20,563 bases of DNA from Pseudomonadota bacterium (GCA_043825735.1 JBDRRP010000087.1:62001-82563); one strand, 5' to 3'. Numbered from the stretch's first letter, positions 3-19,144 are shown. Notes: a model not told the origin generated them from the sequence alone. Numbers and translations: made by a program.

Positions 3-1517
3 TACTATCGGATCATCGGCGGGTTCTATCCGCTCGTGTCCATCGGCATCATTTCCTTTGCCGCAGTGACCCAGTTCGCACCGGCCGTCATTCTGGGAAT
101 ATTCTGGAAGCAAGGAACCCGTGCCGGCGCCACGTGGGGCCTCGTGGCGGGGTTTTCGGTATGGTGCTACACCCTTGCCCTGCCGACCCTTGCGCAAGCC
201 GGATTTGTGGGTCACGGCTTCATGACCGATGGGGCCTTCGGCTTGCACTGGCTCAAGCCCTATTCCCTCTTCGGAATGACAGGTATGGGGGAAGTCACTC
301 ACGGGGTGTTCTGGAGCATGGTATCCAACATGGGGACATACATCGGCGTTTCCCTGTTCACCCGACCCTCCATGATCGAACGGTCCCAAGCCGTTCTTTT
401 CGTGGACGTAATGATCCTTCAGGGCGGTCCAGACGGATCGCCCGTAAGACCTGGGGTTGCCTCGGTGCACGACCTCAGGCGGCTTTTGGAGCGATTTCTC
501 GGCAGGAAACGCACCTCCGAGGCATTTGCCGCCTTTGCCAATGGCCGCGACATCAACTGGGACATACAACAGGATGCCGGATCCGATCTGGTCGATTACA
601 TGGAAAAACTGCTGGCCGGCGCCATCGGTTCGGCATCGGCCCATGTGCTGGTGGGTTCGGTGGTCAAGGAAGCCCCGCTGGGACTCGACGACGTCATGCA
701 CATGCTCGATGAAACCCGGCAGTTCATCAGTTACAGCCGTGAACTTGAAAAAGCCACGGCAGAACTTCAGGCTGCCAATTTACGTCTGAAGGAACTGGAC
801 CGGTTGAAGGACGAGTTCGTTTCCACGGTGACCCACGAGCTGCGCACGCCGCTCACCTCCATCCGCTCCCTGGCCGAAATCATCCATGACACCCCGGATT
901 TGGAAACTGATCGCAGCAAGCGGTTTTCTGCGATCATCATCAAGGAAAGTGAGCGTCTTACGCGGCTGATCACTCAGATGCTAGATGTCCAGAAGATCGA
1001 ATCCGGCAGAATGACATGGAAAATCAGCCAGATGAGACCGAACGACATGGTCCGCGACGCCTTGGCGGCAACCCGCCAGCTCATAGACGACAAAGGCATC
1101 ACCCTGGAATTAGATGTGCCCGACGGGCTGCCGAACATCACCGGTGACAGCGACCGGCTCATTCAGGTCATGGTGAACCTGATCTACAATGCCGTCAAAT
1201 TCTGCCCGGAAAACACCGGCTGGATCCGCATCCGTATACGTCGGGAGAACGACATGATGCGGGTGGATGTTACCGACAACGGCATCGGGATCCCTGCAGC
1301 GTATCATCAGCAGATTTTTGAAAAATTTTATCAGGTCACTGACGACAACCGTGGACGCCCCATGGGATCCGGTCTGGGGCTCAGCATCACCCGCAGTATC
1401 ATCGATTTTCACAAAGGACGCATCTGGGTAGACAGTTCCCCGGGCCAGGGCGCCACCTTCTCTTTTGTGCTCCCCCTCAAATTGTCACCGGACACACAAA
1501 ACCCCTACGGTGTATAA
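3..1517 (+). CDS. CrbS/CbrA-like Na+/solute symporter (SLC5)-STAC-histidine kinase, 5'-truncated by the window edge
   Basis: The frame is open from nt 3 (YYRIIGGFYPLVSIGIISFAAVTQFAPA). It encodes C-terminal symporter TM helices, a STAC-like segment (LLERFLG...EKLLAGAIGSASA), H-box THELRTPLTSIR (His codon 834-836), N-box NLIYNAVKF, DNGIGI and GSGLGL. No PAS or receiver domain follows STAC. Confidence 0.92.
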   Translation, partial: YYRIIGGFYPLVSIGIISFAAVTQFAPAVILGIFWKQGTRAGATWGLVAGFSVWCYTLALPTLAQAGFVGHGFMTDGAFGLHWLKPYSLFGMTGMGEVTHGVFWSMVSNMGTYIGVSLFTRPSMIERSQAVLFVDVMILQGGPDGSPVRPGVASVHDLRRLLERFLGRKRTSEAFAAFANGRDINWDIQQDAGSDLVDYMEKLLAGAIGSASAHVLVGSVVKEAPLGLDDVMHMLDETRQFISYSRELEKATAELQAANLRLKELDRLKDEFVSTVTHELRTPLTSIRSLAEIIHDTPDLETDRSKRFSAIIIKESERLTRLITQMLDVQKIESGRMTWKISQMRPNDMVRDALAATRQLIDDKGITLELDVPDGLPNITGDSDRLIQVMVNLIYNAVKFCPENTGWIRIRIRRENDMMRVDVTDNGIGIPAAYHQQIFEKFYQVTDDNRGRPMGSGLGLSITRSIIDFHKGRIWVDSSPGQGATFSFVLPLKLSPDTQNPYGV

Positions 1518-1568
1518 ACGAACCTGTGTGAGCATGGCGAGTCGCCATGCTCACGCAGGCTCGTTTAT
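1514..1568. terminator. Long hairpin between convergent genes, probably a bidirectional terminator
   Basis: 27-bp arms ataaacgaacctgtgtgagcatggcga / tcgccatgctcacgcaggctcgtttat with 2 mismatches and A/T-rich ends. It overlaps the kinase stop codon. Confidence 0.75.
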
Positions 1569-1573
1569 TTAGA

Positions 1574-1720
1574 TAGTGTCCATCCAGAAATGGTAGATTT
1601 TGGTTCAGAGCAAGGCTTGAGCATTTTCGAAACCGGAGGAATAGCCTGCTATTTCGAGGATTTCGAAAAATGCGAAAACGCAGCTCTGGGCCAAAAGATG
1701 CCGTTTATGGATGGACACTA
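1574..1720. mobile_element. MITE-like non-autonomous element, 147 bp including terminal TA
   Basis: 38-bp imperfect terminal inverted repeats (tagtgtccatccagaaatggtagattttggttcagagc versus the reverse complement of 1683-1720), outer 13 bp perfect, 7 mismatches in total. TA lies at both ends. Nested internal inverted repeats: gcattttcgaaa / tttcgaaaaatgc and aatagc / gctatt. Confidence 0.8.
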
Positions 1721-2370
1721 AATAGGATAGATGCCGGCAGGCACTGTTTATCCGGGGCAAAGCCGGCGTGAAAGGCTTCTCTGGCGGCGGGGAAGGGGCG
1801 GCGGTTTTTAGTTGAGATTTTTTTACCGTAGGGGCAGTCGCGGTGATGAAAACGCCGGGAGTTACTGTTTCCCATCACCGCGCCGATGTCGCTCGATAGC
1901 ATCGACCACAGTCCGCGCCGGGCCGCCATAGCCTTTCGCTGGGCAGCCAGCAGCCTGTCGGCGTATCGATCGTTGGGCTTCAGAGGCAGGCAGTAGGCCA
2001 GCCCTTCGGCCGCCAACGTTTCGTTGAGCATCTGTCCCCGCTGGTCGTATACGTACGCCAGGGTTCTGCCGTATCGGTCGCTGAGGGTTCGGTCGAATTC
2101 GAGGCGGAGCGGGTAGCCGCCGATCAACTGCTGGTTTCTTTCTCGAGCGGTTTGGCCCAGAGGCTCACCCGGATGATCTTTTGTAGCCACTTCAGGGGTG
2201 TTGATGCCGATGTAGCGGATCCAGCGCCCATCGGCGAGCAGCACCGTATCGCCGTCGGCCACCCAATTTACCTGAAAAGGCCCGCCACCGTCGCCCGCCG
2301 ACACGATTGCGGCCAGTACGACCATGACCCCGAGCACCGCCCACAGTGCCGGTCGCCGGTCCGGTGTCAC
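1705..2370 (-). CDS. Thermonuclease (SNase-like) with N-terminal membrane anchor/signal and C-terminal Ada-type metal-binding-like domain, about 221 aa
   Basis: Motifs VADGDT, IRYIGINTPE, DRYGRTLAYV, AQRKAMAARRGLW, and C-terminal GNSNSRRFHHRDC...GFAPDKQCLP. GTG start at 2370 overlaps the upstream TGA (GTGA). Confidence 0.88.
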   Translation of the reverse strand: MTPDRRPALWAVLGVMVVLAAIVSAGDGGGPFQVNWVADGDTVLLADGRWIRYIGINTPEVATKDHPGEPLGQTARERNQQLIGGYPLRLEFDRTLSDRYGRTLAYVYDQRGQMLNETLAAEGLAYCLPLKPNDRYADRLLAAQRKAMAARRGLWSMLSSDIGAVMGNSNSRRFHHRDCPYGKKISTKNRRPFPAAREAFHAGFAPDKQCLPASILFSVHP

Positions 2371-3467
2371 TGGGTCACGCCGCAGACCCGACGCACGCTG
2401 TCGTCCAGCATGGCGGGCAGTCCGCCCTTTTCGGCCGGCGTGAATCCCATAGACCGCTGCCAGACCTCGTCGTCTTCCATGCAAAAATAGGTGGTTACTC
2501 CCGGGGCCCGTTTGCGAATCGCCTCGGCAACCTGGCGAAAGAGAGCGATGCGTTGAGGTTTGAAGTAGCGCATCTTGCCGTCCAGTCCCGGAACGAACTC
2601 TCCTGCGCAGGTGATATCGGAATTCGGGAAACGCCTTTCCAGGATCGCCTTGAGATCGGGCATAAACCGGAAGGTGCCCAGACTGATCCAGACCACATTG
2701 TCGGGGCGTACTACCTGGAACAGCCGATCGACCACCTCGGTGTAGGCACCGGCGCATCCGTCATAGATCATCATGGGATCGAAATGAAAGGCCAGTGGGT
2801 ACCCCCACTCCTGGCATCGCCCGGCAGCCGTCAGTCTGGCCGTCAGACTGGCCGTGCGGCGCTCCTGCTTCCGGATCACCGTTTCCGTGTTGAGGGACCA
2901 GGAAACGATGGTGCGACGACGATGCCGGAGAGGCTGGAGGCGGTCTACAGCCACGGTTTTGGTCTTGAGTTCCAGCACGCTGGTATTCTGGGCGGCGAAT
3001 GCCGTCACCAGAACGCCGGACAGGTCCGTCCACAAATCCCAGATAAGGCTGTCTGTGAACTCACCGGTGCCGATGCGTGAAAGCCGGCCTTCGCTGAAAT
3101 GGGCCCTCAACTCGGTCAGCAGATCATCGTGGTTGAGAAAAAACTGCATGATCGGCGGGCGAAAATAGGCCTGGAGAATGCAATAGGCACAATCCAAGGA
3201 ACAGAACGAGCCGATATGCAGGATCCGGTAGTCGCAGCAGGTGTAGTTCCGGGTACCGGGGCATGGTTTCAAAAAGGCCCCGGAGTTGCGGGTGAGCAGC
3301 AGCATGTTCTTGGCGGCCCCGATGGGGTCCGGCGCGGACTGAATGGCCGCAGCGATGTCGGCAAGGGTGCCCGGCAGCACTTCAGTGGCGCCGAACCGCG
3401 CCGGGATCTCCCGGGTCAGCGGATGCCCGGCAACGGCCGGATCTATGAAGACAGTTTTTTGAATCAT
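2367..3467 (-). CDS. Spore photoproduct lyase-like radical SAM protein
   Basis: CxxxCxxC motif CSLDCAYC, plus SPL-family-like segments GTGEFTDS, LELKTK, SWSLN, HFDPM and YFCME. Confidence 0.85.
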   Translation of the reverse strand: MIQKTVFIDPAVAGHPLTREIPARFGATEVLPGTLADIAAAIQSAPDPIGAAKNMLLLTRNSGAFLKPCPGTRNYTCCDYRILHIGSFCSLDCAYCILQAYFRPPIMQFFLNHDDLLTELRAHFSEGRLSRIGTGEFTDSLIWDLWTDLSGVLVTAFAAQNTSVLELKTKTVAVDRLQPLRHRRRTIVSWSLNTETVIRKQERRTASLTARLTAAGRCQEWGYPLAFHFDPMMIYDGCAGAYTEVVDRLFQVVRPDNVVWISLGTFRFMPDLKAILERRFPNSDITCAGEFVPGLDGKMRYFKPQRIALFRQVAEAIRKRAPGVTTYFCMEDDEVWQRSMGFTPAEKGGLPAMLDDSVRRVCGVTQ

Positions 3468-3483
3468 GGCAAAACCGATGAAA

Positions 3484-3582
3484 CCGTAAAAAGTGATTTT
3501 GAACCACAGAGACCGCAGCGGAACACAGAGAATATGATGAATAATTAATAGGTTATCTCTGTGCCCTCAGCGCCTCTGCGGT
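3484..3582. repeat. REP-like imperfect palindrome built of CACAGAG/CGCAGAG units with an AT-rich spacer
   Basis: accacagagaccgcagcggaacacagag (from 3503) ... ctctgtgccctcagcgcctctgcggt (to 3582), preceded by ccgtaaaaagt at 3484-3494. Confidence 0.7.
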
Positions 3583-3593
3583 GCGCAGTGTTG

Positions 3594-5954
3594 TCAAGGA
3601 ATTCCGATGAAGTCAAAGGACAATTTGACCTGGTATTTTTCGATACGTTTGAAAATTTCCTTCAGCAGGGTCTGTTCGATACGGGAAAGTTTTTTGGGAT
3701 TGACGTAGTTATTGGGCGCCACGTGTTCGTCGGTGATGGCATTGATCTGGCGGACGAAGCGCTGCTGCATGAGAAACCCGTAAGCTTGTTCCAACTCGTG
3801 GTACTCCTCCCAGGTCAGCACTTCCATGAGGTAGAGCCGATGGAGGCGCTCCAGGGTATTGGTCTCGCTGACACCGTGGTGGATGGCGTAGATTCGGGCG
3901 AAATCGATCACCGGCATCATGGCACCCTTGATGTCGAAGGCATCCCGGTGCTCGCCCTTGGACTCCACGACGAAGTTGCGGAAAAAGCCCAGCGGCGGTT
4001 TGAAGCAAAGGGCATTTTCCGTCAGGTGACGGAAAAATCCGCTCCAGCCTGAAGTGGTCACAAACAGGTGCTTGCGCAGCGCGTCGATGAGTCCCACATC
4101 TCCATAGGCACCGCGAAAGTCGAAAAAGATACTGGCGTGAAGCAGATCTTCGGCTTCGGCGCTGCGAATCCACATCGTGAACTGCTTTTTCCACGCCGAC
4201 AGAGGCTGGCACCACTTGGGATTTTTGGCCATGATGCCGCCCTGGCAGAAGGCATACCCGGCGCTGTCGAGCCATGTGCAGATGCGCTCGCCCAGCCTGA
4301 GAAAATAGCCGGTGACCGCTTCAAGCGCTTCAGGGGCGACATCCTTGAAAATAATGGCGTTATCCTGATCGGTTTTGAGCGTCTGCTCCTTGCGTCCTTC
4401 ACTGCCCAGGATCATGAAAACAAAATCCGTCGGCGGAGGACCTTCCGCGATTACCGCGAATTGGACGATGCGATCGAGAATGGCGTCCGAGATGGTAGTG
4501 ATCAGTCGGGTAACATTGTTTGCCTTGGCCCCGGCATTGATGAGTCCTTTGATTATGGCCGGCAACTGCTGGTGTTTGTCAAAAAGGACCTCGGGAGTCC
4601 CCGCCAGATGGATTTCCCGCAGCAGGAACAGGGGGGACTGGCCCTGGGCCATGAGCAGGTCGTGATTGGTGAGCATCCCCACCACATGGTCGCCTTCCCC
4701 GGTAACCGCAAGGTGCTTGATTCCCGATTGCATCATGGTCATCATGGCCTCGAATACCGTGGCCGCAGCCGGCATCGACGCCACCGGACTGCTCATGACA
4801 TGGGCCACCGGCAATGAGATATCCGTCCCTGCGGCGATGACCTTTTTCCGCAGATCGTTATCGGTGACGATGCCGGCGATGGCGCCGTCGTCGGTGGTCA
4901 CGAAAATCGAACTGCATCGATGCCGGCTCATTTTTACGGCCGCGTCCTGGATGCTTTCATGGTGCGGGCACTTGAGAATATTGGTCGTATAAATAGAGGA
5001 GATCTGCTGGTTGAGCAGTGGCAGCCCGGTGTCGCGGGGGCGATGGCTCTGGGCGATAATGGCCGCATAGGAGCGGTCAAGCATGCGCTTTCCGAATGTG
5101 TCGGTGAAAAACTCTGAAAAGGTGGCATTGGATTGGCAGACGGCGCGAAATGTTTGGCCGGCAACCAGGTAAAATGTGGTTTCTTCAACCGTACGCAGGG
5201 TTCGAACGGCCACGCCGTTGTTCACGAGCATGGAAATGCCGCCGAACAGGTCCCCTTCGCCGGCGAGCGCCAGCAGGGTCTTTCGACCGTCCTCTTCGTA
5301 GTAGCGTTCAGCTGCCCCCTTATAGACGACGTGAAGGTTTTCGACCCGGGAACGGTCCTGGATGAAGAGGACCGTCTCTGCCGGATATGTAACCATCTGG
5401 GTGTTTGCGACCACCGCTTCCAGTTCTTCCGGTTTGAGAAGGCTGAATGGTTCCAAGACGGAAAGGAAGGTGGTGATCTGGTTGAGAGCGAGAATGGATG
5501 CGTAGGATTCATTGAGCATCCGGCGGCTGAAGGTTTCAACGAAATATTCACGAAACTTCACGTACCGCGTGCACAAGTCGGTGAAGGCGTCCGTCGGAAG
5601 AAAGAAAAATGCGCAATCGGTCTGCGCTTTTGCCGTGCGCACGCTGATACCCTGATTCATGAGAATGGAGATCCCGCCGAAGATGTCCCCGGGGCCCAGG
5701 ATGCCGCTGAGCTGTTTTTCCTCCTTTTTGTCGTAAAACAGCTCAAGGGAGCCATTCCGGATCAGGTAGACGCCTTCCAGACGGGTCCGGCCTTGCACGG
5801 CGAAAATGGTTCCTGCAGAAATCAGTTTTTCAGTCAGCCGCTCCGACAGGCTGCGTGCGTCCTTGGACGACAGGAGGGAATACGGATGTTGCTGGAGGAA
5901 ATCGTCGAGTGATAACAAAAGCGACCTCGCGTCGTTCGGGGCCAATATTGGCAC
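3594..5954 (-). CDS. DUF294 nucleotidyltransferase-like protein: 2x cNMP-binding-like, CBS pair, DUF294, DUF294_C
   Basis: Two similar N-terminal repeats (GDIFGGISILMN / GDLFGGISMLVN), CBS motifs (GIVTDNDLR, VMSSPV, GMLTNHDLL), NTase motif LGSEGRKEQTLKTDQDNAI, and DUF294 motifs CQGGIMAKNPKW, IFFDFR and PPLGFF. Confidence 0.9.
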   Translation of the reverse strand: MPILAPNDARSLLLSLDDFLQQHPYSLLSSKDARSLSERLTEKLISAGTIFAVQGRTRLEGVYLIRNGSLELFYDKKEEKQLSGILGPGDIFGGISILMNQGISVRTAKAQTDCAFFFLPTDAFTDLCTRYVKFREYFVETFSRRMLNESYASILALNQITTFLSVLEPFSLLKPEELEAVVANTQMVTYPAETVLFIQDRSRVENLHVVYKGAAERYYEEDGRKTLLALAGEGDLFGGISMLVNNGVAVRTLRTVEETTFYLVAGQTFRAVCQSNATFSEFFTDTFGKRMLDRSYAAIIAQSHRPRDTGLPLLNQQISSIYTTNILKCPHHESIQDAAVKMSRHRCSSIFVTTDDGAIAGIVTDNDLRKKVIAAGTDISLPVAHVMSSPVASMPAAATVFEAMMTMMQSGIKHLAVTGEGDHVVGMLTNHDLLMAQGQSPLFLLREIHLAGTPEVLFDKHQQLPAIIKGLINAGAKANNVTRLITTISDAILDRIVQFAVIAEGPPPTDFVFMILGSEGRKEQTLKTDQDNAIIFKDVAPEALEAVTGYFLRLGERICTWLDSAGYAFCQGGIMAKNPKWCQPLSAWKKQFTMWIRSAEAEDLLHASIFFDFRGAYGDVGLIDALRKHLFVTTSGWSGFFRHLTENALCFKPPLGFFRNFVVESKGEHRDAFDIKGAMMPVIDFARIYAIHHGVSETNTLERLHRLYLMEVLTWEEYHELEQAYGFLMQQRFVRQINAITDEHVAPNNYVNPKKLSRIEQTLLKEIFKRIEKYQVKLSFDFIGIP

Positions 5955-5986
5955 CCCTGTTCGCCCGCCCTGTCGGCGTGGCTCGG

Positions 5987-8167
5987 TTAATATGTCATCC
6001 GCGCAAAGTAAGTTTTTTGGGACGCGCGCCGAGCTTCCATCAATGAACGGATGCCCTGTTGTTTAAGCAGCGGAATGAGTTTTAGAAACACTTCCGCAGT
6101 CGTGATGGCGTCTCCCAGAGCCGTGTGTCGTCCTTCCACGGTGACACCCAGCCGTACCGCAATGGTTTCCAGTGAGTGGTCTTTTTGGCTCGGATGGACC
6201 ACCGCAGAGAGCAGCATGGTATCCAGCACCGGGTTGATGAAATAAATGCCGGAGGAAGCCTCCTTCATCTGGAGCATGCGCATGTCAAAAGCGGCGTTGT
6301 GTGCCACCAGTACCGTGTCGGCCGCAAACCGATGGAACTGTGCGAGCACCCGGTCCACTGTGGGTTTTCCCGCCACCATGTCCTGGTTTATGCCATGAAA
6401 TTTCACCGACTCCCAGGGAATCTGTCGCTGGGGGTCCACCAATTGATCGAAGGACTCCTCCCGCAGCAGGCGCTGGTTGACGATGCGTACGGCGCCGATG
6501 GAAATGATCTCATCACCGCCGCGGGGATCCAAACCGGTGGTTTCGGTATCAAAGACCGTGACCGTCAGTGCCTCCAGGGGCTGGCTGTCTGTACTCGGCA
6601 ACTGCCCGGGTTGGTTAAATAGATCGAAATCATAAAATTCCGGTCGGCTGGTGGTCAGTACTGCGGCGCTTCGTTTCTGGTTCTCTTCCGGAGGCGGCGC
6701 CAGTGTGGGCAAAAGTATCCGGAGTCCGGTGCAGGAAGGATCGCTGCATGACGGTTTACAGGGGATCAGTTCTCCGTCGTGGCGCTCAATGACCTGTCCC
6801 AGGGTCATTGGCAACCGGGTGTCATCCGTCCTCACCGATGCATTCTGCCACTTCTGAAGGCGTTCCATGGATACCGCAGTACCAACCCATACCAGGTCCA
6901 CATGTACAAAACGATCTTCAATCCGTCCCCGGACCGAAATCCGTGTAATGCCGTCGTGTTCGACGATCCGGGATATGATGAATCCCAGGGCCGTCAGCAG
7001 CAGGTAGCTGTCGGCTTTTACCCACAAAGCGTCTCCGACCGGAGGCATGTCCACCATGCATGCGGTGGCGCCGGTGGCACAACGTTGCTTCAATGCATGG
7101 AACAAATCGTCAAGCCTGACGGGGGTGAGCGGCCAACTACTGCGGGTTGCGGCTGGCAGTTGGGCTGCGGATTCGTCGAGAATACCGCTGAGAATAACGG
7201 CCTCGTCGCGAATGATAGTGCGCAGCCGGGTACGGCGCAGGTTGTCCATGTCCGGAAAAGCGACCATGAATTCGATGGCCGAGCGGATGCCGGCCAGAGA
7301 TGCCCGGGCCTTGGTGATCAGATGTTCCAGGAGGCGGGACATGCGATACCGGCTTTCCATTCGTTCCGTCACGTCTTCGAACATCAGGATGTAGCCGTTG
7401 AATTCACCGTGAGCATCGAATACCGGCACCATTTCGCTCTGGATGAGCCGCCCATTTTTTCCGGGCGTCACGAAGTGGCAGGCCGCACCGGTATCGTTTC
7501 GAGCCACATTGCGCCGTATGTCCTCCATTGCAAATCGGATCAGGGCGCCGTCCACTATGCCCATGATGGAACGTCCCAGTCCTAAAAAATGCTCGGTGCC
7601 AGCGCCGGTCGGGTCCGGCGGCTCAGGGCCGTCACCGTCTTCAAACAGACGCTTGGCCTGTCGGTTGTAGAGAATGATCCGATGGTCCATGTTGCAGACG
7701 ATCACACCCTGCGGCAGTTCAGACACCATGGCGGCCAGGATGGTTTTTTCCCGCTCACTCTCATCACGCGCCGTTGCTACCTGAGCGGATACCTGATCGT
7801 GGATGCTTTCGATACGTCCGGCCATGAGGTTGAACAGGTCGGCGAGTTGCTGGACCGGACGGCTTCCGTCGACCCGAATCCGGTGAGCGGGGTTGGCTGA
7901 TAGGATGATGCGGGTCTCTTCAAGCATCCGGTTCAAGGGCAGGATATAATTGTTAAGCGCCCCGTCAAGGGCAAAACCCACGGCCGCGATGATGAGGATG
8001 GCACCCATGAAGAAATAGGTGGGGTAGTTCTTGACTAGAGAAAGAAGCAGGTCCTTTTCGGAGGGCGTGAGATCCTGCCAGAAGAAAACACCGAGGATAA
8101 TGAATGTGATGGTGGTAATGCAGAGCGCCAGCGCCACAAACCACCAGAATTTGTTTTGGGTCCGCAT
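5987..8167 (-). CDS. Membrane-anchored signalling 3'-5' exonuclease: 2 TM, HAMP-like, PAS, degenerate HisKA/HATPase, DEDDh (DnaQ-like) domain
   Basis: Two N-terminal hydrophobic helices, PAS start LPQGVIVCN...YNRQA, and intact Exo I VFDTETTG, Exo II AHNAAFD and Exo III HTALGDA. Confidence 0.9.
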   Translation of the reverse strand: MRTQNKFWWFVALALCITTITFIILGVFFWQDLTPSEKDLLLSLVKNYPTYFFMGAILIIAAVGFALDGALNNYILPLNRMLEETRIILSANPAHRIRVDGSRPVQQLADLFNLMAGRIESIHDQVSAQVATARDESEREKTILAAMVSELPQGVIVCNMDHRIILYNRQAKRLFEDGDGPEPPDPTGAGTEHFLGLGRSIMGIVDGALIRFAMEDIRRNVARNDTGAACHFVTPGKNGRLIQSEMVPVFDAHGEFNGYILMFEDVTERMESRYRMSRLLEHLITKARASLAGIRSAIEFMVAFPDMDNLRRTRLRTIIRDEAVILSGILDESAAQLPAATRSSWPLTPVRLDDLFHALKQRCATGATACMVDMPPVGDALWVKADSYLLLTALGFIISRIVEHDGITRISVRGRIEDRFVHVDLVWVGTAVSMERLQKWQNASVRTDDTRLPMTLGQVIERHDGELIPCKPSCSDPSCTGLRILLPTLAPPPEENQKRSAAVLTTSRPEFYDFDLFNQPGQLPSTDSQPLEALTVTVFDTETTGLDPRGGDEIISIGAVRIVNQRLLREESFDQLVDPQRQIPWESVKFHGINQDMVAGKPTVDRVLAQFHRFAADTVLVAHNAAFDMRMLQMKEASSGIYFINPVLDTMLLSAVVHPSQKDHSLETIAVRLGVTVEGRHTALGDAITTAEVFLKLIPLLKQQGIRSLMEARRASQKTYFARMTY

Positions 8168-8169
8168 TA

Positions 8170-8538
8170 TTACCCGTTGAGCAATTCGCTGACCCGGCGC
8201 ACAACGGTGTTGTTGGAAAAGGGCTTGGTGATGTAGGCATCCGCGCCCAGGACCATTCCCTTGGCAATGTCGACTTCCCTGCCCTTGGCGGTGAGAAAAA
8301 TGATCCGGATGTCCTTCCAGGCGCTATTGAGCCGAACGATTTCACAGACCTCGTAACCGTCGATACCGGGGAGCATGATGTCGAGCAGTATCAGATCCGG
8401 TTGGAATTTGGAAATGCTTTCCAGCGCTTCTTCGCCGCTGTGGGCCACGGCTACCGAGTAGCCTTCGCGTTCCATGAGGAATTCGAGGGGAACCACGATG
8501 TTGGGTTCGTCATCGACGATGAGTACTTTAGGCGGCAT
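8170..8538 (-). CDS. Single-domain response regulator (receiver only)
   Basis: VLIVDDE, LLDIMLPGIDG (phospho-acceptor Asp), FLTAK and YITKPF. A TAATAATG junction links it to the exonuclease start. Confidence 0.95.
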   Translation of the reverse strand: MPPKVLIVDDEPNIVVPLEFLMEREGYSVAVAHSGEEALESISKFQPDLILLDIMLPGIDGYEVCEIVRLNSAWKDIRIIFLTAKGREVDIAKGMVLGADAYITKPFSNNTVVRRVSELLNG

Positions 8539-8739
8539 CAGATGGTCCCTGTCACCTGTCGCCTTAGGACCGGCTGCGGCTGACCTTCAAGAGATCGTGG
8601 CCGGCACGCGGGGCGGCATGAAAACGGTTTCTGACTGCAGCACTGAAAAATCCGGCAGATGCCGCCTGCCGGCCGGTGATAACGGGCGGTGCCATTATCC
8701 GGTTTGTATTGTGGGGTTCTTATATCTAATGATGAAGTG

Positions 8740-8782
8740 AGCCATGCGGTGGGGGCGACACAAACACCCCCACCGCGTGGTT
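8740..8782 (-). terminator. GC-rich hairpin after the acs-symporter-peptide genes (terminator or 3' stabiliser)
   Basis: Arms agccatgcggtgggggcg / cacccccaccgcgtggtt (18 bp, 3 non-Watson-Crick positions), 7 nt after the peptide stop. There is no clear U-tract. Confidence 0.55.
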
Positions 8783-8789
8783 AAGCGGT

Positions 8790-8876
8790 TTATCCGAAGA
8801 CGCCCCAGCCAAAGGCTGCGGTCCAGATGATGGAAAAGCCTACCAAGATAATCATCCACACATCTTCTTGTTTCAT
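8790..8876 (-). CDS. 28-aa single-TM small protein MKQEDVWMIILVGFSIIWTAAFGWGVFG
   Basis: ATG at 8876 with AGGAG about 7 nt upstream, TAA at 8790-8792, and an uninterrupted hydrophobic stretch. It lies between the symporter stop and a hairpin and is too short for the ORF track. Confidence 0.72.
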   Translation of the reverse strand: MKQEDVWMIILVGFSIIWTAAFGWGVFG

Positions 8877-8915
8877 AGTATTTCTCCTAGACCAGTAGTT
8901 GGCAGTGACGATCGA

Positions 8916-10709
8916 CTAATTCTCGACCACTTCCATGGTTTCCTCGTCTGCCCGCCGGCATTGCTCAACGGTCGTGGTGGCCATTTCTGCTTTAAAGCAG
9001 AGCGCCCACATCATCACGATACCGATGATCCACCAGACAATCTGCCAGGACCACAGCGGCGGGAAGCCGGAGATGGAGAAGGCCGTGTTGCCGAGGATAC
9101 AGGCAGGACCAATGGCGAAGAAGTACCATACCGGCACGAAGATCTTCATGATGCCGCGCCATTTCTTGCCCGATTCGCTGGGCTCGTCAACACTGTCCAG
9201 CCAACTGCGGACTTCCGCCTGGCGCTGGATGGTCTCTTCGTCGTCTTTCATGCCGATGCCGCGGCAGATGTAGGCCACGACCAGACCCGTGAACGTCCCC
9301 CAGAACGCGCAGTGCATGGACAGGGGGGACGGGAACACGGAGTAAGTGACGTAGACCGCGATCATGCCTGCTAGAACGCCCAGGACGGCGCCGATGGCAG
9401 GGAACCGGAAACCCCAGATGACACCCAGCAACAGCACGTACATGACGAAGCCGTAGGCGGTAGCCAGCGCCCCCAGAATAACCAGGGCGGCTGTCGATGT
9501 GAGACCGACCGCCAGGGCAGCAATGGTCAGAACGGTGGCCAGAAGACGGTTTACCCAGATCTGCTCGGCATCGCTGCATTTCTTTTTCTTGATGTAGCGC
9601 CAGTAGATGTCGCGCAGCAGAATGGAGCCGCCGGTGCCGATGTAAGGCGCCGCCGTGGAGTGAATGGCGGCGATGGCGCCGATGAAAACGACCCCCAGCA
9701 TGAAGGGCGGCAGGAACTGCTGCATCAGGATCGGCACCGTGGTTCGGTTGTTGAGGCCCTTGAAGATTTCGATCTGCTCAGGCGTAAGGCCGGCGCCGGT
9801 GGTCTGCAGAACGCGCGCGCCCATGCCCTGGAAGGCCGTGAAGTAAAACAGGGCGAAGCCGACTACGAAGGTGGACATGAAGGCCTGCTGCCAGGCCAGG
9901 GGTTTGGGGCTCTTGATGCCGAACGTCCACATGGTGAAGGCCGGGGATGACTGGATCCCCATGAGGGCGAACATGTAGGTGAGAATCATCACCGATGTCC
10001 ATCCGCCCTTGAGGCCGAAGTGGATGACTTTCGGCACTTCGAGGTACTTGGTTTCGAGCTTCATGATCTCGCTTGAAAAACTGCTCCAGCCACCCATCTG
10101 GGCTAGGCAATAGGCCCCGAGGATGATGATGCCGCCCACCAATAGGACGAACTGAATCACGCCGACCCAGGTACTGGCCTTGAGACCGCCGGTGCAGACA
10201 TAAAACCAGACGATGAAGGCCAGAAAGAGGCAGCCGAAAGTGACCGGTACGCCGGCGATGACGTTGAACAAAGCGCCGGCGGCCATGAGCTGAACGGCCG
10301 AGTAGAATACGGAGTACAGGACGGCCGTCAACACGACGAGAAACCTTAAGAATTCATTGTTGAAATAGTACGCATACATGTCGCCGGGGGTGACGAACCC
10401 GTAGCGTTTGCCCAGCAGCCAGGTTCGTTTTGAGAAAAACGTACCGGTGATGGGAATGGTGAGGACGTAAAACGAGGCGAAGGCGTACGCCAGACCGTCT
10501 CGCCAGATCAGACCGGGGTGACCGATGAAGGTCCACCCGCTGAAGGAGGCAGCGGTGGCAGCCAAAAGAAATGCGAAAAACGGAATGGAACGGCCCGCGA
10601 TGGCGTAGCCCTGTGAGGACTTTTCTGTAAAATAACCCTTCAGTCCCCAGTAAAAGCAGTAGACGATGTAGATGCCCAGCATGATGTAAACCCAAGTGGT
10701 TCCACTCAT
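8916..10709 (-). CDS. Sodium:solute symporter (SSS) family protein, probable acetate/monocarboxylate permease
   Basis: SSS motifs YAIAGR, ASFSGWTFIGHPG, YVCTGGLKA and AAIHSTA, many TM helices, and a GGAGG RBS. The substrate is inferred from adjacency to acs. Confidence 0.9.
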   Translation of the reverse strand: MSGTTWVYIMLGIYIVYCFYWGLKGYFTEKSSQGYAIAGRSIPFFAFLLAATAASFSGWTFIGHPGLIWRDGLAYAFASFYVLTIPITGTFFSKRTWLLGKRYGFVTPGDMYAYYFNNEFLRFLVVLTAVLYSVFYSAVQLMAAGALFNVIAGVPVTFGCLFLAFIVWFYVCTGGLKASTWVGVIQFVLLVGGIIILGAYCLAQMGGWSSFSSEIMKLETKYLEVPKVIHFGLKGGWTSVMILTYMFALMGIQSSPAFTMWTFGIKSPKPLAWQQAFMSTFVVGFALFYFTAFQGMGARVLQTTGAGLTPEQIEIFKGLNNRTTVPILMQQFLPPFMLGVVFIGAIAAIHSTAAPYIGTGGSILLRDIYWRYIKKKKCSDAEQIWVNRLLATVLTIAALAVGLTSTAALVILGALATAYGFVMYVLLLGVIWGFRFPAIGAVLGVLAGMIAVYVTYSVFPSPLSMHCAFWGTFTGLVVAYICRGIGMKDDEETIQRQAEVRSWLDSVDEPSESGKKWRGIMKIFVPVWYFFAIGPACILGNTAFSISGFPPLWSWQIVWWIIGIVMMWALCFKAEMATTTVEQCRRADEETMEVVEN

Positions 10710-10865
10710 AACTTCCCTCCTGTGGCAAATGTCGGTAAAGGTGACCGGTTAACCGGTTAGGACGGTTTTGCGTGTCACACCCTGCAGTACTACCACCTCC
10801 TTTCTATGCGCATTGATGAGGTCTCGTTCAAGATGACCTTTTTACTTGTGAAGCGGTGCCGGCAG

Positions 10866-10911
10866 TGCCGGCCGCCGCGGTGCCTCCGAAGGGGCGCCGC
10901 AGCAGCCGGCA
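10866..10911 (-). other. Stable intercistronic hairpin with cUUCGg tetraloop just after acs
   Basis: Minus strand reads tgccggctgctgcggcgcccc-TTCG-gaggcaccgcggcggccggca: a 21-bp stem with 2 G-U pairs and 2 mismatches, and no U-tract. Confidence 0.6.
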
Positions 10912-10926
10912 TCGTTCGGAGTGGTG

Positions 10927-12957
10927 TTATTTAGCCATTTTCTGGATGTGCTCCACGATCTCCGGGTTGGCCAGGGTGGTTACATCACCCACGTCACCGT
11001 TGTTGGAGATGGCGCCAAGAACCCGGCGCATGATCTTTCCGGACCGGGTTTTGGGCATGTCCGGAACGATCCACACTTTTCTCGGTTTGGCGATGGGGCC
11101 GATCTCCGTGGCCAGTGCCTTGGAGATTCTGGCGGCCAGCTCGGCCGTTGCTTCGAATCCGGGTTTGAGCGCCACGTACAGATCGGGCACAACGCCCTTG
11201 ATCTCGTCTCTGACCGGAACCACGGCGGCTTCCGCTACTTCTTTCACCGTCAGTGCCGCAGACTCCAGTTCCTTTGTGCCCAGCCGGTGGCCGGAGACGT
11301 TGATGACGTCGTCAATACGTCCCAGGATCCGGTAGTAGCCGTCCGGTCCTTCTACGGCGGCATCGCCGGTGAGATAGGGCCAGTCCTGCCATCTTTTGCT
11401 CTTGGGGTCCTTGCAGTAGCGCTCGAAATACGTACTCACGAAGCGATCGCGGTTGCCCCAGATGGTCTGAAACATGCCCGGCCAGGGGTTCTGAATGCAG
11501 ATATTACCGGCCTTTCCGGCGCCCCGGGGCAGTTCCTTGCCCTCGTCATCGTAAATGATGGGGTGAATGCCGGGCATGCCGGGTCCGGCGCTGCCGGGCT
11601 TCATGGGTTTCAAGGCCGGCAGGGTGCTGCAGAGGAAGCCGCCGGTCTCTGTCTGCCACCAGGTGTCCACGATGATGGCTTCCTTCTTTCCGACGAATTC
11701 ATAGTACCATTTCCAAACGGCGGGCTCGATGGGCTCACCCACGGTGGTCATATGCTTGAAGTGGTAATTGTATTTGGCGGGCTCGAGTGGACCGACTTTC
11801 CGCAGCGCCCGAATTGCGGTGGGGGCGGTGTGGAAAATGTTGACATCCAGGTCCTGGGCGATGCGCCAGCAGCGGCCGGCATCCGGATAGGTGGGGATGC
11901 CTTCATAAATGACCGATGAGGCGGCCAGCGCCAGCGGGCCGTAAACGATGTAGGAGTGTCCCGTGATCCACCCGATATCGGCCATGCACCAGTACACGTC
12001 TTCGGGATGGATGTCCTGGACGAACTTGGAAGTGCCCGTGACATAGGACAGATAGCCGCCGGTGCCGTGCTGGCACCCCTTGGGCTTGCCGGTGGTGCCG
12101 CTGGTATACATGAGAAAGAGCGGATCCTCGGCGTTCATGCGTTCGGGCTCCACGCGGACCCCGTAAAAGTCTTTGAGCTTCTCGTTGACGAAATAGTCGC
12201 GGCCGTCCACCATGGGTGTCGGGGCCGAATACTTGCCGGCATATCGCTGCCAGACCAGGACCTTGTCCACGACCTGGCCATCTTTGGCCGCCAGTTCGCA
12301 GGCCACGTCGGCCTTTTCCTTGTGATCCAGAAGGCCGCCGCCGCGGTAGTAGGCGTCGATGGTGATAAGCACCCGACTTCCGGAGTCGACGACCCGGTCG
12401 GCTGCCGCCCGGCCGCTGAAGCCGCCGAACACCTGGGAATGGATAACGCCCAGACGGGCGCAGGCCAGCATGGTGATGGGCAGCTCGGGAGTCATGGGCA
12501 GGTGGAGCGTGACCCGGTCGCCGCGTTTCAAGCCGGCAAAATCACGGAGCAGCGCAGCCATTTCATTCACCCGCACATAGAGCTCTTGATAGGTGATGTG
12601 CTCCACCTTCTCCTCTTCAAGTTCGGGCACGAAGTGGAGCGCGGTCTTATTTTTGTGTTTTGCGAGGTGTCGGTCGATGCAGTTGAAACTGGCGTTGATC
12701 TGCCCTCCCTTGAACCACTTGTAGCAGGGGGCGTCGCTGGTATCGAGGATATCGTCCCAGTACTTGTACCAGGTCAGCAGATCGGCGTACTCTTTAAAGC
12801 AATTGGGAAAATTATCCAGGCTGAACCGGTCGTATATTCCCATGTCGGTCATGTTCGCCTGGGCGATAAAATCTACTGAAGGGTACACCAGATTTTCTTC
12901 CTGCCAGTGGACGGCTATCTGCGCTTCTGAAGTTTCGACGACTTCTCTTTCGGCCAT
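10927..12957 (-). CDS. acs: Acetate--CoA ligase (AMP-forming acetyl-CoA synthetase), about 676 aa
   Basis: YTSGTTGKPKG, ADIGWITGHSY, DTWWQTETGG, GRIDDVINVSGHRLGT and PKTRSGKIMRR (acetylation-site Lys). ATG at 12957 follows GGAGG. Confidence 0.96.
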   Translation of the reverse strand: MAEREVVETSEAQIAVHWQEENLVYPSVDFIAQANMTDMGIYDRFSLDNFPNCFKEYADLLTWYKYWDDILDTSDAPCYKWFKGGQINASFNCIDRHLAKHKNKTALHFVPELEEEKVEHITYQELYVRVNEMAALLRDFAGLKRGDRVTLHLPMTPELPITMLACARLGVIHSQVFGGFSGRAAADRVVDSGSRVLITIDAYYRGGGLLDHKEKADVACELAAKDGQVVDKVLVWQRYAGKYSAPTPMVDGRDYFVNEKLKDFYGVRVEPERMNAEDPLFLMYTSGTTGKPKGCQHGTGGYLSYVTGTSKFVQDIHPEDVYWCMADIGWITGHSYIVYGPLALAASSVIYEGIPTYPDAGRCWRIAQDLDVNIFHTAPTAIRALRKVGPLEPAKYNYHFKHMTTVGEPIEPAVWKWYYEFVGKKEAIIVDTWWQTETGGFLCSTLPALKPMKPGSAGPGMPGIHPIIYDDEGKELPRGAGKAGNICIQNPWPGMFQTIWGNRDRFVSTYFERYCKDPKSKRWQDWPYLTGDAAVEGPDGYYRILGRIDDVINVSGHRLGTKELESAALTVKEVAEAAVVPVRDEIKGVVPDLYVALKPGFEATAELAARISKALATEIGPIAKPRKVWIVPDMPKTRSGKIMRRVLGAISNNGDVGDVTTLANPEIVEHIQKMAK

Positions 12958-13172
12958 AAATCCCTCCCTCTCAAAGCAGTTATTGAAAAAAACGATAAGG
13001 TGGTGGATCAACGGGGTGAGGCGCTAGGCATCCCTCCTTTCCAGCAGTGCATCGATAGTGAATAGTTCGTGTTGTAAACCGACCGAGCTGATCGCCCCAA
13101 GGCCCAACTGCCCGACACAGTAACGGCGGTTACCGGTATCCGTGGCCTTAAATATAAAGCGGTAATCGGGTA

Positions 13173-13823
13173 TCATGGCAAATCCGGTATCGGAGATGTT
13201 TTCATTCCGCGTTCAAGGATCTCGAAAGCGATGTCGAGTGTCTGCCTGAGAAAATCTTTACGCTCGTTAAAAACTTTTTTACTTTCCTCCCAGAGGACCA
13301 CGCCGGAGAAAAGGCTCCATGTGATGTCAGACAAGGCGCTGGGTGAGCCAAAGATGTTTTTGTCGGTGGTCGAGAGATGGCGGTAGATACTGGTCATGCT
13401 CGCGATGGACGAATCGGATAGATTCTGAATGTTCTCCAACAAGTCCGGAGAAAGGCTTTTCAGCGTTTCGCTCGATTGGAGATGAAACATGTTTATCAGC
13501 ACCAGCGGATCGAATTCATAAACATCCAACATGGCCTCTTTCAATGATGTTAAGGCTTCGTTCGTGGAAATGGATGTGTCCGTATCCAGTTGTTCCAGCC
13601 TTATATTAAGGTATTTGAGTACCCTGAGAGACAGAGAGGCATACAGTTCGTCTTTGTTCTTGAAATACAGATACAGCGTCCCTGGGCTGAGCTCGGCCTC
13701 TGTGGCGATGTCTTCCATGGTGGATTTATTAAACCCTTTTTCAGCGAAGACATGCTTAGCGGCAACCATGATCTGCTGGCGCCGACGCTCCTTTTCCCGC
13801 TCTTTGCGCTCTTGTATTCCCAT
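13173..13823 (-). CDS. TetR/AcrR family transcriptional regulator
   Basis: N-terminal [43 protein letters not shown]. Confidence 0.95.
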
Positions 13824-15945: not shown

Positions 15946-16831
15946 AGGAACGGCCGGTGAGCTGCGTATAGGCCTCTCTGTATTTTGCCTGCGTGTTGTC
16001 GATCACTTCCTTGGGCAGGCGCGGGCCGGGGGCTTTCTTGTCCCAGTCGAGGGTGAGCAGATAGTCTCGAACATATTGCTTGTCGAAGCTTTTCTGACCG
16101 CCGCCAGGCATATAACTGGCGCTGGGCCAGAATCGGCTGGAATCGGGCGTCAGTACTTCGTCGATGAGAATCAACTCACCGTCGAGGAGCCCGAACTCAA
16201 ATTTGGTGTCGGCGATAATAATGCCCTTCTCGCGGGCCAGCACTTCGCCCTTTCGGTAAATCGCCAGGCTCAGGTCTCGGGCCTTTTCAGCCAATTCGCG
16301 GCCGACCCTTTTCACGGCGCCATCGAAATCGATATTCTCATCGTGCTCGCCGAGATCGGCTTTGGTAGAGGGTGTGAATATCGGCTCCGGGAGTTTCTCA
16401 GATTCCACCAGTCCTTCCGGGAGACGGATACCGCAGATGGCGCCGGTTTCTTTATAATCCTTCCAACCTGAGCCGGTGATATAGCCGCGCACCACGCATT
16501 CGATGGACAGGGGTGAGGCCTTTTTCACCAGCATACTACGGCCTTTCAGAACCTCTGCATAGGGCTGGCAACTCGCGGGGTAGTCGGCCACGTTACTGGT
16601 AATGACGTGGTTTGCAATGAGCTCGCTCATGGCAGAAAACCAGAACAAGGAGATCTGAGTGAGGATTTTTCCCTTACCGGGGACAGGGTCGGGCAGTACG
16701 ACATCAAAGGCTGAAATACGATCTGAAGCCACCATCAGCAGGGCGTCGCCCAGATCGTAGATATCACGCACTTTGCCGCGGGATCGTAGCGTCAGATTTT
16801 TAAAATCGGTGGTGACGACGGGGTTACTCAT
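15935..16831 (-). CDS. purC: Phosphoribosylaminoimidazole-succinocarboxamide (SAICAR) synthase
   Basis: [49 protein letters not shown] and SFDKQYVRD. Confidence 0.97.
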
Positions 16832-17180
16832 TGGGTGTCCCTTTGCCGCTCAGGGCGTGTATAAACCACTTCAGTTTCGGATAGGAGTCCGTTTCGACGG
16901 TGGCAAATTCGATGCCGGTTTCGTATTTTCCGGCCCCCATTGGTTTGGAATATACGGCATAGCCCTTGAGCTCAAGCAACTCGTCTTCCAAACCCAGCGT
17001 GATCACGAGCGGATCTCCCATGGGGACGTCAAATGTCGTTTCCAGCAGCATTCCCGATTCGGACAGGTTAAGCGTGCGCCCCATCCCCTGAACCGCGGCG
17101 TTGCCGTCTTCGGTCGCAAAGACGTGGGACAGGTTGAGGGAACGGATACGGGCGTGTCTGCGTTTGTTTTCTTCTGTCAT
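16824..17180 (-). CDS. Single-domain PilZ (c-di-GMP-binding) protein, about 118 aa
   Basis: RxxxR (KRRHAR) and (D/N)xSxxG (NLSESG) motifs. ATG at 17180 has a purine-rich RBS; the end overlaps the purC start by 8 nt. Confidence 0.85.
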
Positions 17181-17214
17181 GGATCCATCCCTTTCCATCC
17201 GGCTGCAGTTCGGG

Positions 17215-18393
17215 TCACGGTTTTTTGAAAGCTTTTTGGTACAACCCGCAGGCGATCTGGGTGGTGGCTGAAATGCAGATGGATGTGCTCTCAATGATAT
17301 TTTTGAAGGTCTGGGACTGGCGTTGATATTCCGCTTGGAGCTGATCCGTGTCGAGGCGGGACACTTTCAGGTCCTCCGAACCGTAGACACAAGCATTGTC
17401 CGGCTCGTGGCCGAGATTGAGGAAGTGAAAATTTCCGAAAACGTCACCCTTGCCCAGCATGGCCAACGGCACATCATCCTGTTTTGTGCGACGCACCAGG
17501 CAGGCGTCTCCTTGGGAGATCATGAACAGTTTTTCCTCGGGCTGCCCCTGCTTGACAACCGGTTTGCGGCCGTTGAGATAGTCCCGGATATTGTTTTTTT
17601 TCATCCGGATATCCGCCACGTTGTCCGTTACGCGCTTGAGCCGGCGGTCCAGGCTGATCACAAGATCGCGCATGGATGCCGATAGCTTCGAGAACTCAAT
17701 GGCCAGCCGCTGCGCGTCGAGAACGCCCAACTGAACCGTGGTGGCGCTGCGGACGGTGGCACTACGCACAGTGCCTTTCATGAGGAACGATTCCACGCTG
17801 CCGATAAAGGCGCCGTCGCCCAGTTTGAGGATTTTCAGCGGTTCTTTGCCATCCACGTCGCGAATCACATCAACGGCGCCTTCAAGGATCACCCAGATCC
17901 AGTCGCCGTGCTTTCCTTCAACGACCAGGGGTTCATCCGGGCCAAAGGTTTCCTCGTCCACCACGTACATGTAGTCGACCAGAGGCCCTTTGATGACGTG
18001 CGATCCTTCTTTTCCGGATGAGAGCGCGCCGCTCTCCTTGGGCCCTGACGGACCAAGCGTCGGAATCTGGCCATCATCCATCATCCGCAGGCCTTCCAGG
18101 ATGATTTCCATTCGACCCTGCTTGATCGCCTTTTCCCGGGAGAACTGTTCTTTTCGAAACTCGAACTGACCGGTGGTCCACCCGAACAGGGCATAGAGCG
18201 CTGAATCCGCTGTCATGTTTCCCACGATGGCATCCACCGGGTTGCCATCGGTGAAGTAAACCACGCCGATATCCGGGGTGTACTGACTGTGAAGCCGCAG
18301 AATTCCGGTATTGCCGTTACCGCCCAGCAATTGCAGAAGGTCGGCAAGGCCCATGAATTCGAGACGGCCCGTGAGTTCTGCGGTTTGGTTCAT
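17215..18393 (-). CDS. DUF4388 (PatA-N-like) protein with two cNMP-binding-like domains
   Basis: N-terminal LTGRLEFMGLADLLQLL...TGIL...W..GQFEF...IILEGLRMMDD. cNMP-like domains EGKHGDWIWVILEGAV...RSATV and QGQPEEKLFMISQG...GDVFG. Confidence 0.85.
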   Translation of the reverse strand: MNQTAELTGRLEFMGLADLLQLLGGNGNTGILRLHSQYTPDIGVVYFTDGNPVDAIVGNMTADSALYALFGWTTGQFEFRKEQFSREKAIKQGRMEIILEGLRMMDDGQIPTLGPSGPKESGALSSGKEGSHVIKGPLVDYMYVVDEETFGPDEPLVVEGKHGDWIWVILEGAVDVIRDVDGKEPLKILKLGDGAFIGSVESFLMKGTVRSATVRSATTVQLGVLDAQRLAIEFSKLSASMRDLVISLDRRLKRVTDNVADIRMKKNNIRDYLNGRKPVVKQGQPEEKLFMISQGDACLVRRTKQDDVPLAMLGKGDVFGNFHFLNLGHEPDNACVYGSEDLKVSRLDTDQLQAEYQRQSQTFKNIIESTSICISATTQIACGLYQKAFKKP

Positions 18394-18402
18394 GAGTCGT
18401 GT

Positions 18403-19017: not shown

Positions 19018-19144
19018 AATCCGTCTCGTCCTTGTCGCCCGCTCGACTGGTTGATAGTGACCGACCGGTCGCCCCTGCCGGTGTTTTTAAAGACCTCCTG
19101 CAGACGCCTTACCGCATCAGTGCGGGATCGGCTGATTTAATGCA

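Follow-up and report, generated by a model that had tools for sequence, protein, structure and literature searches.

Fusion of an SLC5-STAC region to a sensor histidine kinase is known from CrbS/MxtR, RpuS and CbrA; hybrid SLC5 kinases with LuxR partners have been described (PMC9100948, PMC5436829), as has the CbrX-CbrA pair (PMC13022988). In Pseudomonas, a nucleotidyltransferase (NTase)-exonuclease pair is among the genes that depend most strongly on CrbR/ErdR (bioRxiv 10.64898/2026.09.07.749794). Pflu5625 of P. fluorescens belongs to the CrbR regulon, with regulation by nucleotidylation predicted (PMC5715377), and PP_0354-PP_0353 of P. putida KT2440 was reported as an operon, with a speculated role in mRNA decay (PMC9927547); more recently, protein modification was suggested for PP_0354 and RNase T-like activity for PP_0353 (bioRxiv 10.64898/2026.09.07.749794). 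Here we compare these systems with a locus in a 20,563-nucleotide stretch of DNA (the window) from a Pseudomonadota bacterium (GCA_043825735.1 JBDRRP010000087.1:62001-82563), whose genome is Desulfobacterota-like (6.8 Mb, 100% complete, 160 contigs). Four open reading frames (ORFs) were found at the coordinates and with the domains assigned in a first-pass annotation of the same DNA:

3-1517, plus strand: sensor kinase, C-terminal 504 of 913 amino acids; SLC5-STAC-HisKA-HATPase, non-hybrid
3594-5954, minus strand: NTase, the proposed writer; cNMP-cNMP-CBS-CBS-DUF294-DUF294_C
5987-8167, minus strand: exonuclease fusion, the proposed gated eraser; two transmembrane (TM) helices, HAMP-like linker, PAS, pseudo-histidine-kinase, DEDDh
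8170-8538, minus strand: single-domain receiver with an intact phosphorylation site

As in PP_0354/PP_0353 (Pflu5625), which stand under MxtR/ErdR (CrbS/CrbR), a cNMP-CBS-DUF294 NTase and a DEDDh gene are tied here to carboxylate uptake. There, however, the pair is controlled at the level of transcription and its exonuclease is a separate protein, whereas here the exonuclease is fused to a 2TM-PAS-pseudokinase, a lone receiver lies adjacent and the kinase is non-hybrid. The latter shares with CrbS/MxtR, RpuS and CbrA the SLC5-STAC-histidine kinase fusion and, as with CbrX, is preceded by a small membrane protein (an ORF of 69 amino acids), yet it has neither a PAS nor a receiver domain, nor a LuxR or sigma-54 partner. 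With GlnE, GlnD and DrrA/SidM, the locus has in common the two-domain NTase fold, the catalytic motif and the coupling of writer and eraser, sometimes in one chain; unlike in GlnE/GlnD, the eraser would be a DEDDh (or calcineurin-like, PHP or HD) domain, and the input CBS, cNMP-like, sCache or a two-component relay. No glutamine synthetase or PII gene was recognised among the neighbours, which were not fully annotated. DivL of Caulobacter, a PAS-bearing pseudo-histidine-kinase thought to read the single-domain receiver DivK (PMC4211667), likewise combines a PAS-pseudokinase with a lone receiver and, like DivL, the fusion has a kinase core devoid of the phospho-His and the ATP-binding boxes; its output would be an enzyme in the same chain, not another kinase, and its receiver binding is predicted. 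The ribonuclease RNase Z, also a nucleic-acid-processing phosphodiesterase, acts as a deAMPylase that takes adenosine monophosphate (AMP) off proteins; it differs in its metallo-beta-lactamase fold and in having SelO as writer, and no two-component gating is described in the passages considered (PMC12663964).

The module is real and conserved across several phyla. From its anatomy and co-occurrence, which were observed, we infer the signal flow, chemistry and target of a GlnD/GlnE-like, reversible protein-nucleotidylation switch under two-component control. The SLC5-STAC kinase would sense a solute, probably a short carboxylate, and phosphorylate the lone receiver, which would dock on the dead kinase core of the membrane-anchored fusion, as DivK~P on DivL, and so switch the DEDDh domain. 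DUF294 would transfer a nucleoside monophosphate (NMP), probably AMP, to a protein hydroxyl under the control of the CBS and cNMP-like domains, and the DEDDh domain would hydrolyse the protein-O-NMP phosphodiester, a step chemically akin to removal of a 3'-terminal nucleotide, thereby restoring activity. The target would sit at the membrane, most likely the sodium:solute symporter (SSS) permease or a small subunit, with the mark turning uptake off. Judging from sequence, structural models and analogy, we hold a nucleotidylation switch gated via kinase, receiver and pseudokinase, probably acting on the permease, with even confidence.

Conservation of the module and its signalling proteins

The tight linkage of receiver, fusion and NTase noted at the outset was confirmed, the genes being separated by 2 and 32 nt (the second value taken to the first GTG). 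The kinase gene begins some 1.2 kb to the left of the window; it is encoded on the opposite strand, convergent with the NTase gene and 2,076 nt from it. In the 6.8-Mb genome, the DUF294 core, the exonuclease fusion and the SLC5-STAC region each gave a single tblastn match (E<=1e-8); because each is single-copy and all three fall within 8.5 kb, this clustering of linked genes goes beyond chance. In addition, one contig from run X1, possibly the source sample, covers 3912-12736 without differences.

The gene-neighbourhood check that the first-pass annotation had called for revealed conserved linkage. It covered the best-scoring 80 of at least 560 confirmed GTDB loci, spanning Desulfobacterota, beta-, gamma- and alphaproteobacteria, Chloroflexota and one Thermoleophilia genome. 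Of these, 67 contain a lone receiver, 58 an SLC5 kinase, 59 an NTase and 55 either acs or an SSS permease; 44 are flanked by 8 kb or more on each side, and all four genes are present in 33 of these 44 (a count raised from 31 by L030 and L036, whose receivers were seen later; the L041 receiver is on the opposite strand). Outside Desulfobacterota, the usual order is small membrane ORF, kinase, receiver and fusion on a single strand. Receivers with an output domain were found in 10/80 loci, and the four tested were OmpR-like or UvrY-like. Among 41 relatives, 19 carry the fusion; the NTase accompanies it in 18 and the SLC5 kinase likewise in 18, the kinase being on the same contig in 11/18 and on a different one in 7/18. 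In 121 Pseudomonadota genomes sampled regardless of the module, we observed the NTase in 48 and the pseudokinase in 21, 20 of which also have the NTase; ActP-like genes are present in 31, 26 of them with the NTase.

The kinase retains the phospho-His (687) and the N, G1 and G2 boxes, HisKA and HATPase domains were found, and its family profile matches the SLC5-STAC region of CbrA (PDB 10ed; E 8e-113, positions 6-628). Pfam detected neither a PAS nor a receiver domain in its 913 residues, and it is therefore not a hybrid CrbS; thus, of the CrbS-like kinase that had been proposed, the SLC5-STAC-histidine kinase fusion stands and the hybrid PAS/receiver architecture does not. In the family, 59 kinases end no more than 252 residues past the H-box. 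The predicted lack of a CrbR-like output held: no CrbR orthologue was found in the genome, whose best matches to two CrbR-like LuxR proteins (chosen by adjacency to hybrid SLC5 kinases, not by name) are 23-31% identical, against 53% between the two queries. Of 32 sampled genomes that have a hybrid kinase of the CrbS/PrlS type, only two possess the pseudokinase, each of them alongside a non-hybrid kinase, whereas 18/19 top-scoring non-hybrid SLC5 kinases co-occur with it; this suggests two alternative wirings, one transcriptional and one post-translational, in a count that taxonomy confounds. The module is not a member of the CrbS/CrbR system.

The receiver keeps its phosphorylation site (D53 in 64/65, K105 in 65/65), and its helix 1, which docks the kinase, is strongly conserved. 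The fusion has TM helices at residues 10-28 and 53-71, followed by a linker that modelling suggests to be a HAMP domain (no Pfam hit), and its predicted fold matches the PAS-histidine kinases WalK and VicK and DnaQ/PolC exonuclease domains (2gui, 2p1j and 8h18 for DEDDh). The first-pass calls of a pseudokinase and of intact enzymes were borne out across the family. In the kinase core, the phospho-His is kept in 2/81 (Glu or Asp in 62), the N-box Asn positions are Tyr/Phe in 68/81 and Arg/Lys in 73/81, and the G1 Asp position is Trp in 80/81; the DEDDh active site (D540, E542, D628, H681, D686), by contrast, is invariant in 81/81, and the NTase motif is present in 65/65. The fusion does not belong with DNA polymerase III epsilon (DnaQ): it has two TM helices and, at 116 bits, falls short of the dnaQ equivalog TIGR01406 (cut-off 222.7). 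Its named homologues include Desulfobacterota proteins, and the Atlas search returned only unnamed RNase_T clusters.

Searched with a profile of the dead core, the SLC5 kinase of the same cluster scored 69 bits and the next of 56 kinase cores 35; this kinase is not a generic hub, being top-ranked for only 2/55 other queries. The dead core also retains the docking-helix pattern of its cognate kinase. By the docking-helix score alone, the cognate kinase ranks 2nd, 4th or 5th of 56 depending on the positions chosen, which is only suggestive, and the whole-core profile and hub control were used instead. In a quick tree (n=88: 18 of the 80 pseudokinases, 15 cognate kinases, 55 others), pseudokinases and cognate kinases stand apart from the 55 others with a Shimodaira-Hasegawa-like approximate likelihood ratio (SH-aLRT) of 84, support that rests on a long branch and an unfinished search and to this extent speaks against our interpretation. 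When the dead core was searched against the 121 genomes, nine of the ten secondary matches were frames of 913-930 amino acids matching SLC5 kinases; the tenth was the chimera in L153. These comparisons suggest that the pseudokinase is a duplicate of the sensor's own core that would still dock the same receiver, as DivL does DivK~P. A complex prediction of two pseudokinase cores with the receiver scored 0.38, against 0.58 for a control with an unrelated protein, and counts neither for nor against such docking. The wiring from receiver via pseudokinase to DEDDh was not found in the literature searched, which covered few subscription papers and no supplements.

Two further segments of the fusion stand out: the linker motif RPE[FY]YDF is near-invariant (residues 508-517; window about 6617-6646, minus strand), its YDF part persisting in versions without the pseudokinase, and the C-terminal Tyr 726 (window 5990-5992, minus strand) is kept in 80/81. 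Either could be an autoinhibitory segment or a modification site. The letters DLF in the conserved linker were considered as a clamp-binding motif and rejected, since a Gln is missing and the second clade does not share them.

The DUF294 nucleotidyltransferase and its phosphoesterase partners

In the NTase, G517, S518, R521, E523, D529, D531 and D612 are invariant, so that the Pol-beta Gly-Ser motif and the three catalytic acids are present in all 65 rows (five partial NTase ORFs left out). The structural model (predicted local distance difference test 95.6) aligns with the GlnE adenylyl-removing and adenylyltransferase domains and with DrrA at Z 25.6, 25.4 and 25.2 over 288-290 residues (root-mean-square deviation 2.8-3.2); the next structural match has Z 12.7, and Foldseek concurs on GlnE/DrrA. 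The match covers the NTase and the helical C-terminal domain as a whole unit. GlnE and DrrA domains act on protein tyrosines. Both are named as AMPylases or deAMPylases in PMC12663964, and DUF294_C has been grouped with the C-terminal domains of GlnD/GlnE (PMC3710099). A sequence search of the PDB with the NTase profile returned nothing significant. Both cNMP-like domains have Gly-Gly in the phosphate-binding cassette instead of the Gly-Glu that is canonical for cAMP-binding (CRP-type) cassettes, and the Glu occurs in 0/39 regex matches across the NTase family.

Across the 121-genome sample, 57 DUF294 loci cover 58/60 matches, the remaining two having been fetched separately. A linked DEDDh was present in 52/57: 28 adjacent and stand-alone, 22 membrane-anchored and two fused as DEDDh-CBS-DUF294. 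This count is 51+1: in L174, the pseudokinase-DEDDh gene is truncated by the end of the locus, for which reason this locus was added manually (its RNase T-like gene was not counted); L153 was counted as lacking DEDDh. At L153 1445-3841 (minus strand), the pseudokinase is joined to the middle of acetyl-CoA synthetase, probably through mis-assembly. A search for longer relatives of one stand-alone DEDDh returned six weak matches, none of them a DUF294 fusion; such fusions were seen only in the genome sample.

Other folds take the place of DEDDh elsewhere. In Desulfobacterota relatives, an sCache-PAS-CBS-DUF294 protein is followed by a calcineurin-like phosphoesterase (three loci) or carries a PHP domain (one); in one further case, a GAF-HD gene follows the NTase. 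When metagenomes were scanned with the calcineurin-like phosphoesterase, 49 loci were recovered, of which 36 have at least 400 nt upstream and 16 at least 5 kb; DUF294 lies directly upstream in 36/36, and the 16 longer loci hold SSS in 10, acs in one and DEDDh in none. That unrelated phosphoesterase folds fill one slot is our strongest argument that the partner undoes the NTase product. The writer/eraser pairing of the first-pass annotation thus draws comparative support from the GlnE/DrrA fold, the NTase-DEDDh fusions and the swapped phosphoesterases, the chemistry of the pair being predicted.

The sCache_2-PAS-CBS-DUF294 proteins coupled to a calcineurin-like phosphoesterase or fused to PHP (L101 6664-10376, L102, L103, L104, L215-L263) make up a separate membrane-bound system, often beside an SSS gene and an sCache kinase-regulator pair. 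At L100 5354-7756 (minus strand), beside a kinase and a receiver, a PAS-pseudokinase is fused to DUF294 and keeps the linker and first residues of the exonuclease; as a single case, it may be a real domain swap or an assembly artefact. The Desulfobacterota DUF294 genes of L108-L113 lie directly upstream of Cache or PAS hybrid kinases.

Candidate target, contrary points and competing explanations

Upstream of the receiver gene, the window contains the following features:

8790-8876, minus strand: hydrophobic peptide of 28 amino acids, an unannotated ORF with a ribosome-binding site directly after the permease gene
8916-10709, minus strand: sodium:solute symporter of the SSF family, the favoured candidate target
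10927-13011, minus strand: acetyl-CoA synthetase (acs), above the TIGR02188 cut-off, the alternative candidate target
13173-13823, minus strand: TetR-family regulator directly upstream of acs

The two neighbours in the initial proposal, acs and an SSS permease, are thus both present; the permease is, however, not of the ActP acetate type, lying below the ActP (68 vs 750 bits) and VC_2705 (64 vs 321) cut-offs. One permease from each of two other linked clusters does pass an ActP/VC_2705-type NCBIfam cut-off. In the sampled DUF294 loci, SSS genes are the most frequent neighbours, at 38/57 as against 19/57 for acs. The phosphoesterase partner appears to be membrane-bound in each form: the eraser here has TM helices, stand-alone DEDDh partners have a basic Trp-rich N-terminus (23/29 vs 0/55 controls), and calcineurin-like phosphoesterases have, by inspection, a basic hydrophobic C-terminal tail. 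A peptide like that of 28 amino acids follows the permease in 9/13 related Desulfobacterota loci and is a possible transporter subunit. P. putida grows more slowly on pyruvate when it lacks the exonuclease or actP, but not when it lacks the NTase (PMC9927547, bioRxiv 10.64898/2026.09.07.749794), as would be expected were the permease shut by a mark left in place. Where the first-pass annotation had acetate uptake or activation under control, the permease is the better candidate than Acs. Within the nucleotidylation model, we put the permease at somewhat better than an even chance; that the signalling proteins themselves are the target is rather unlikely, and Acs or another enzyme is a little less likely again. 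The target is the weakest step of the model. A permease paralogue (G000:C48:40847-42610; 67% identity) without a DUF294 gene beside it offers a natural control for this question.

Several observations weigh against the proposed switch. The closest structures of the DEDDh domain are DNA proofreading exonucleases, and we know of no DEDDh deNMPylase. At least one part is lacking from 11/44 fully flanked loci, the SLC5 kinase was not found in 3/21 sampled pseudokinase genomes, and these 21 are not independent, many of them looking closely related. Several Desulfobacterota DUF294 genes, among them most of those in L108-L113, lack a recognised phosphoesterase beside them. The linked permeases fall into four main clusters, and no Tyr, Ser, Thr, His or Lys separates the ActP of 25 NTase-bearing from that of five NTase-lacking genomes. 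In P. putida, both deletions lower growth on propionate, where a simple off-switch predicts otherwise (bioRxiv 10.64898/2026.09.07.749794). Finally, the literature searched yielded no activity for any DUF294 protein or for this DEDDh family. The earlier remark that the genes have no established function stands, yet published work describes the pair as an operon under CrbR/ErdR, reports phenotypes of its mutants and suggests a part in protein modification.

Of the competing explanations, the one that survives best, which we consider rather improbable, has the NTase synthesise a diffusible di- or oligonucleotide, linear or cyclic, as a signal that the partner degrades and that acts on carboxylate uptake or activation. 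DEDDh, calcineurin-like, PHP and HD folds, all found as partners, all include enzymes hydrolysing small nucleotides, and the cNMP-like domains, without the canonical Glu in all 39 motif matches, may bind another ligand. However, the fold matches protein AMPylases at Z about 25 as opposed to 6.6 for the oligo-dA synthase HalB, no separate receptor gene recurs in the loci, and erasers of a diffusible signal need no membrane tether. The small-nucleotide-signal version of the first-pass annotation is hence less favoured than a protein mark.

It is likewise improbable that the pair is real but ungated by the kinase and receiver, which would signal elsewhere, with the dead core no more than a scaffold for dimerisation or at the membrane, or the DEDDh domain a DNA exonuclease. 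Here the kinase gene has the opposite orientation, and in 7/18 relatives it sits on a separate contig; 211 receiver-domain matches and three NarL-type regulators occur in the genome, and membrane-anchored versions that have lost the pseudokinase exist (L134, L135). On the other hand, 67/80 loci have the lone receiver, adjacent or elsewhere within them, the dead core keeps the docking-helix pattern of, and is closest to, the cognate kinase, and the two of 32 hybrid-kinase genomes with a pseudokinase are also those with a non-hybrid kinase.

We judge quite improbable a reading speculated upon in PMC9927547: tailing and trimming of RNA by the pair, at tRNA ends or on mRNAs of carboxylate metabolism, with the kinase controlling a regulated RNase. 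Polymerase-beta-type NTases include RNA tailing enzymes, and the DEDDh domain belongs to the RNase T/DnaQ family. Yet matches of the NTase model to terminal uridylyltransferases are weak (Foldseek E 0.06 or worse), the domain search showed no RNA-binding domain, and RNA trimming fits poorly with a DEDDh swapped for a metallophosphoesterase or PHP, and with membrane tethering. Very unlikely, lastly, is adenylylation of a small molecule (a hydroxy-acid, cofactor or toxic metabolite), reversed by a partner that might alternatively clear acyl-adenylate side products: the fold is distantly related to that of aminoglycoside nucleotidyltransferases (Z 9.4 and 7.2), acyl-CoA synthetases are neighbours and both P. 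putida mutants are impaired on propionate (bioRxiv 10.64898/2026.09.07.749794), but protein-modifying enzymes match far more strongly and acs is rare beside the metallophosphoesterase version (1/16).

In its fullest form, the protein-nucleotidylation switch would make a protein de-nucleotidylase the output of a two-component system, a receiver-reading core duplicated from the sensor switching a DnaQ-fold enzyme, which in turn would release NMP from a transporter in the membrane, and DUF294 a third housekeeping class of protein-NMPylases; as a whole, this case is doubtful. If true, it would introduce a deNMPylase of the DEDDh fold, a nutrient transporter controlled by a covalent nucleotide and an enzyme switched via a pseudokinase as two-component output; many proteins that sources label 'DNA polymerase III epsilon' would be misnamed, and DUF294, with interchangeable erasers, would gate carboxylate uptake widely (48/121 sampled Pseudomonadota genomes) and join GlnD and GlnE.

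Other features of the window

As had been noted, no DNA-binding response regulator is present in the window; nonetheless, the TetR gene at 13173-13823 adjoins acs. As it precedes acs, the region does hold a DNA-binding regulator, though not a response regulator. It likely provides transcriptional control of acs-SSS, and a TetR gene is found in 6/13 Desulfobacterota loci. Promoter and terminator scans were both near chance (6 vs 6.0 and 16 vs 12.3 +/- 3.7, respectively), and in RNA runs at most 9% of words were present, mostly from contigs of relatives, which does not bear on expression or operon structure.

Between the kinase and NTase genes lie an SNase gene and a spore-photoproduct-lyase-like radical SAM gene (window 1705-3467, minus strand). 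The latter recurs in 6/13 Desulfobacterota loci only and is therefore probably a matter of lineage synteny. Dispersed intergenic repeats occupy window 1516-1720 and 3477-3583, with 133 and 166 blastn matches in the genome; a 17-bp hairpin at 1523-1559 lies inside such a repeat. Further downstream in window coordinates, at 16824-20068 (minus strand), a gene for a small Arf/Ras-type GTPase, which we take to be MglA-like, sits beside a DUF4388-cNMP protein and a small, presumably PilZ-like ORF.

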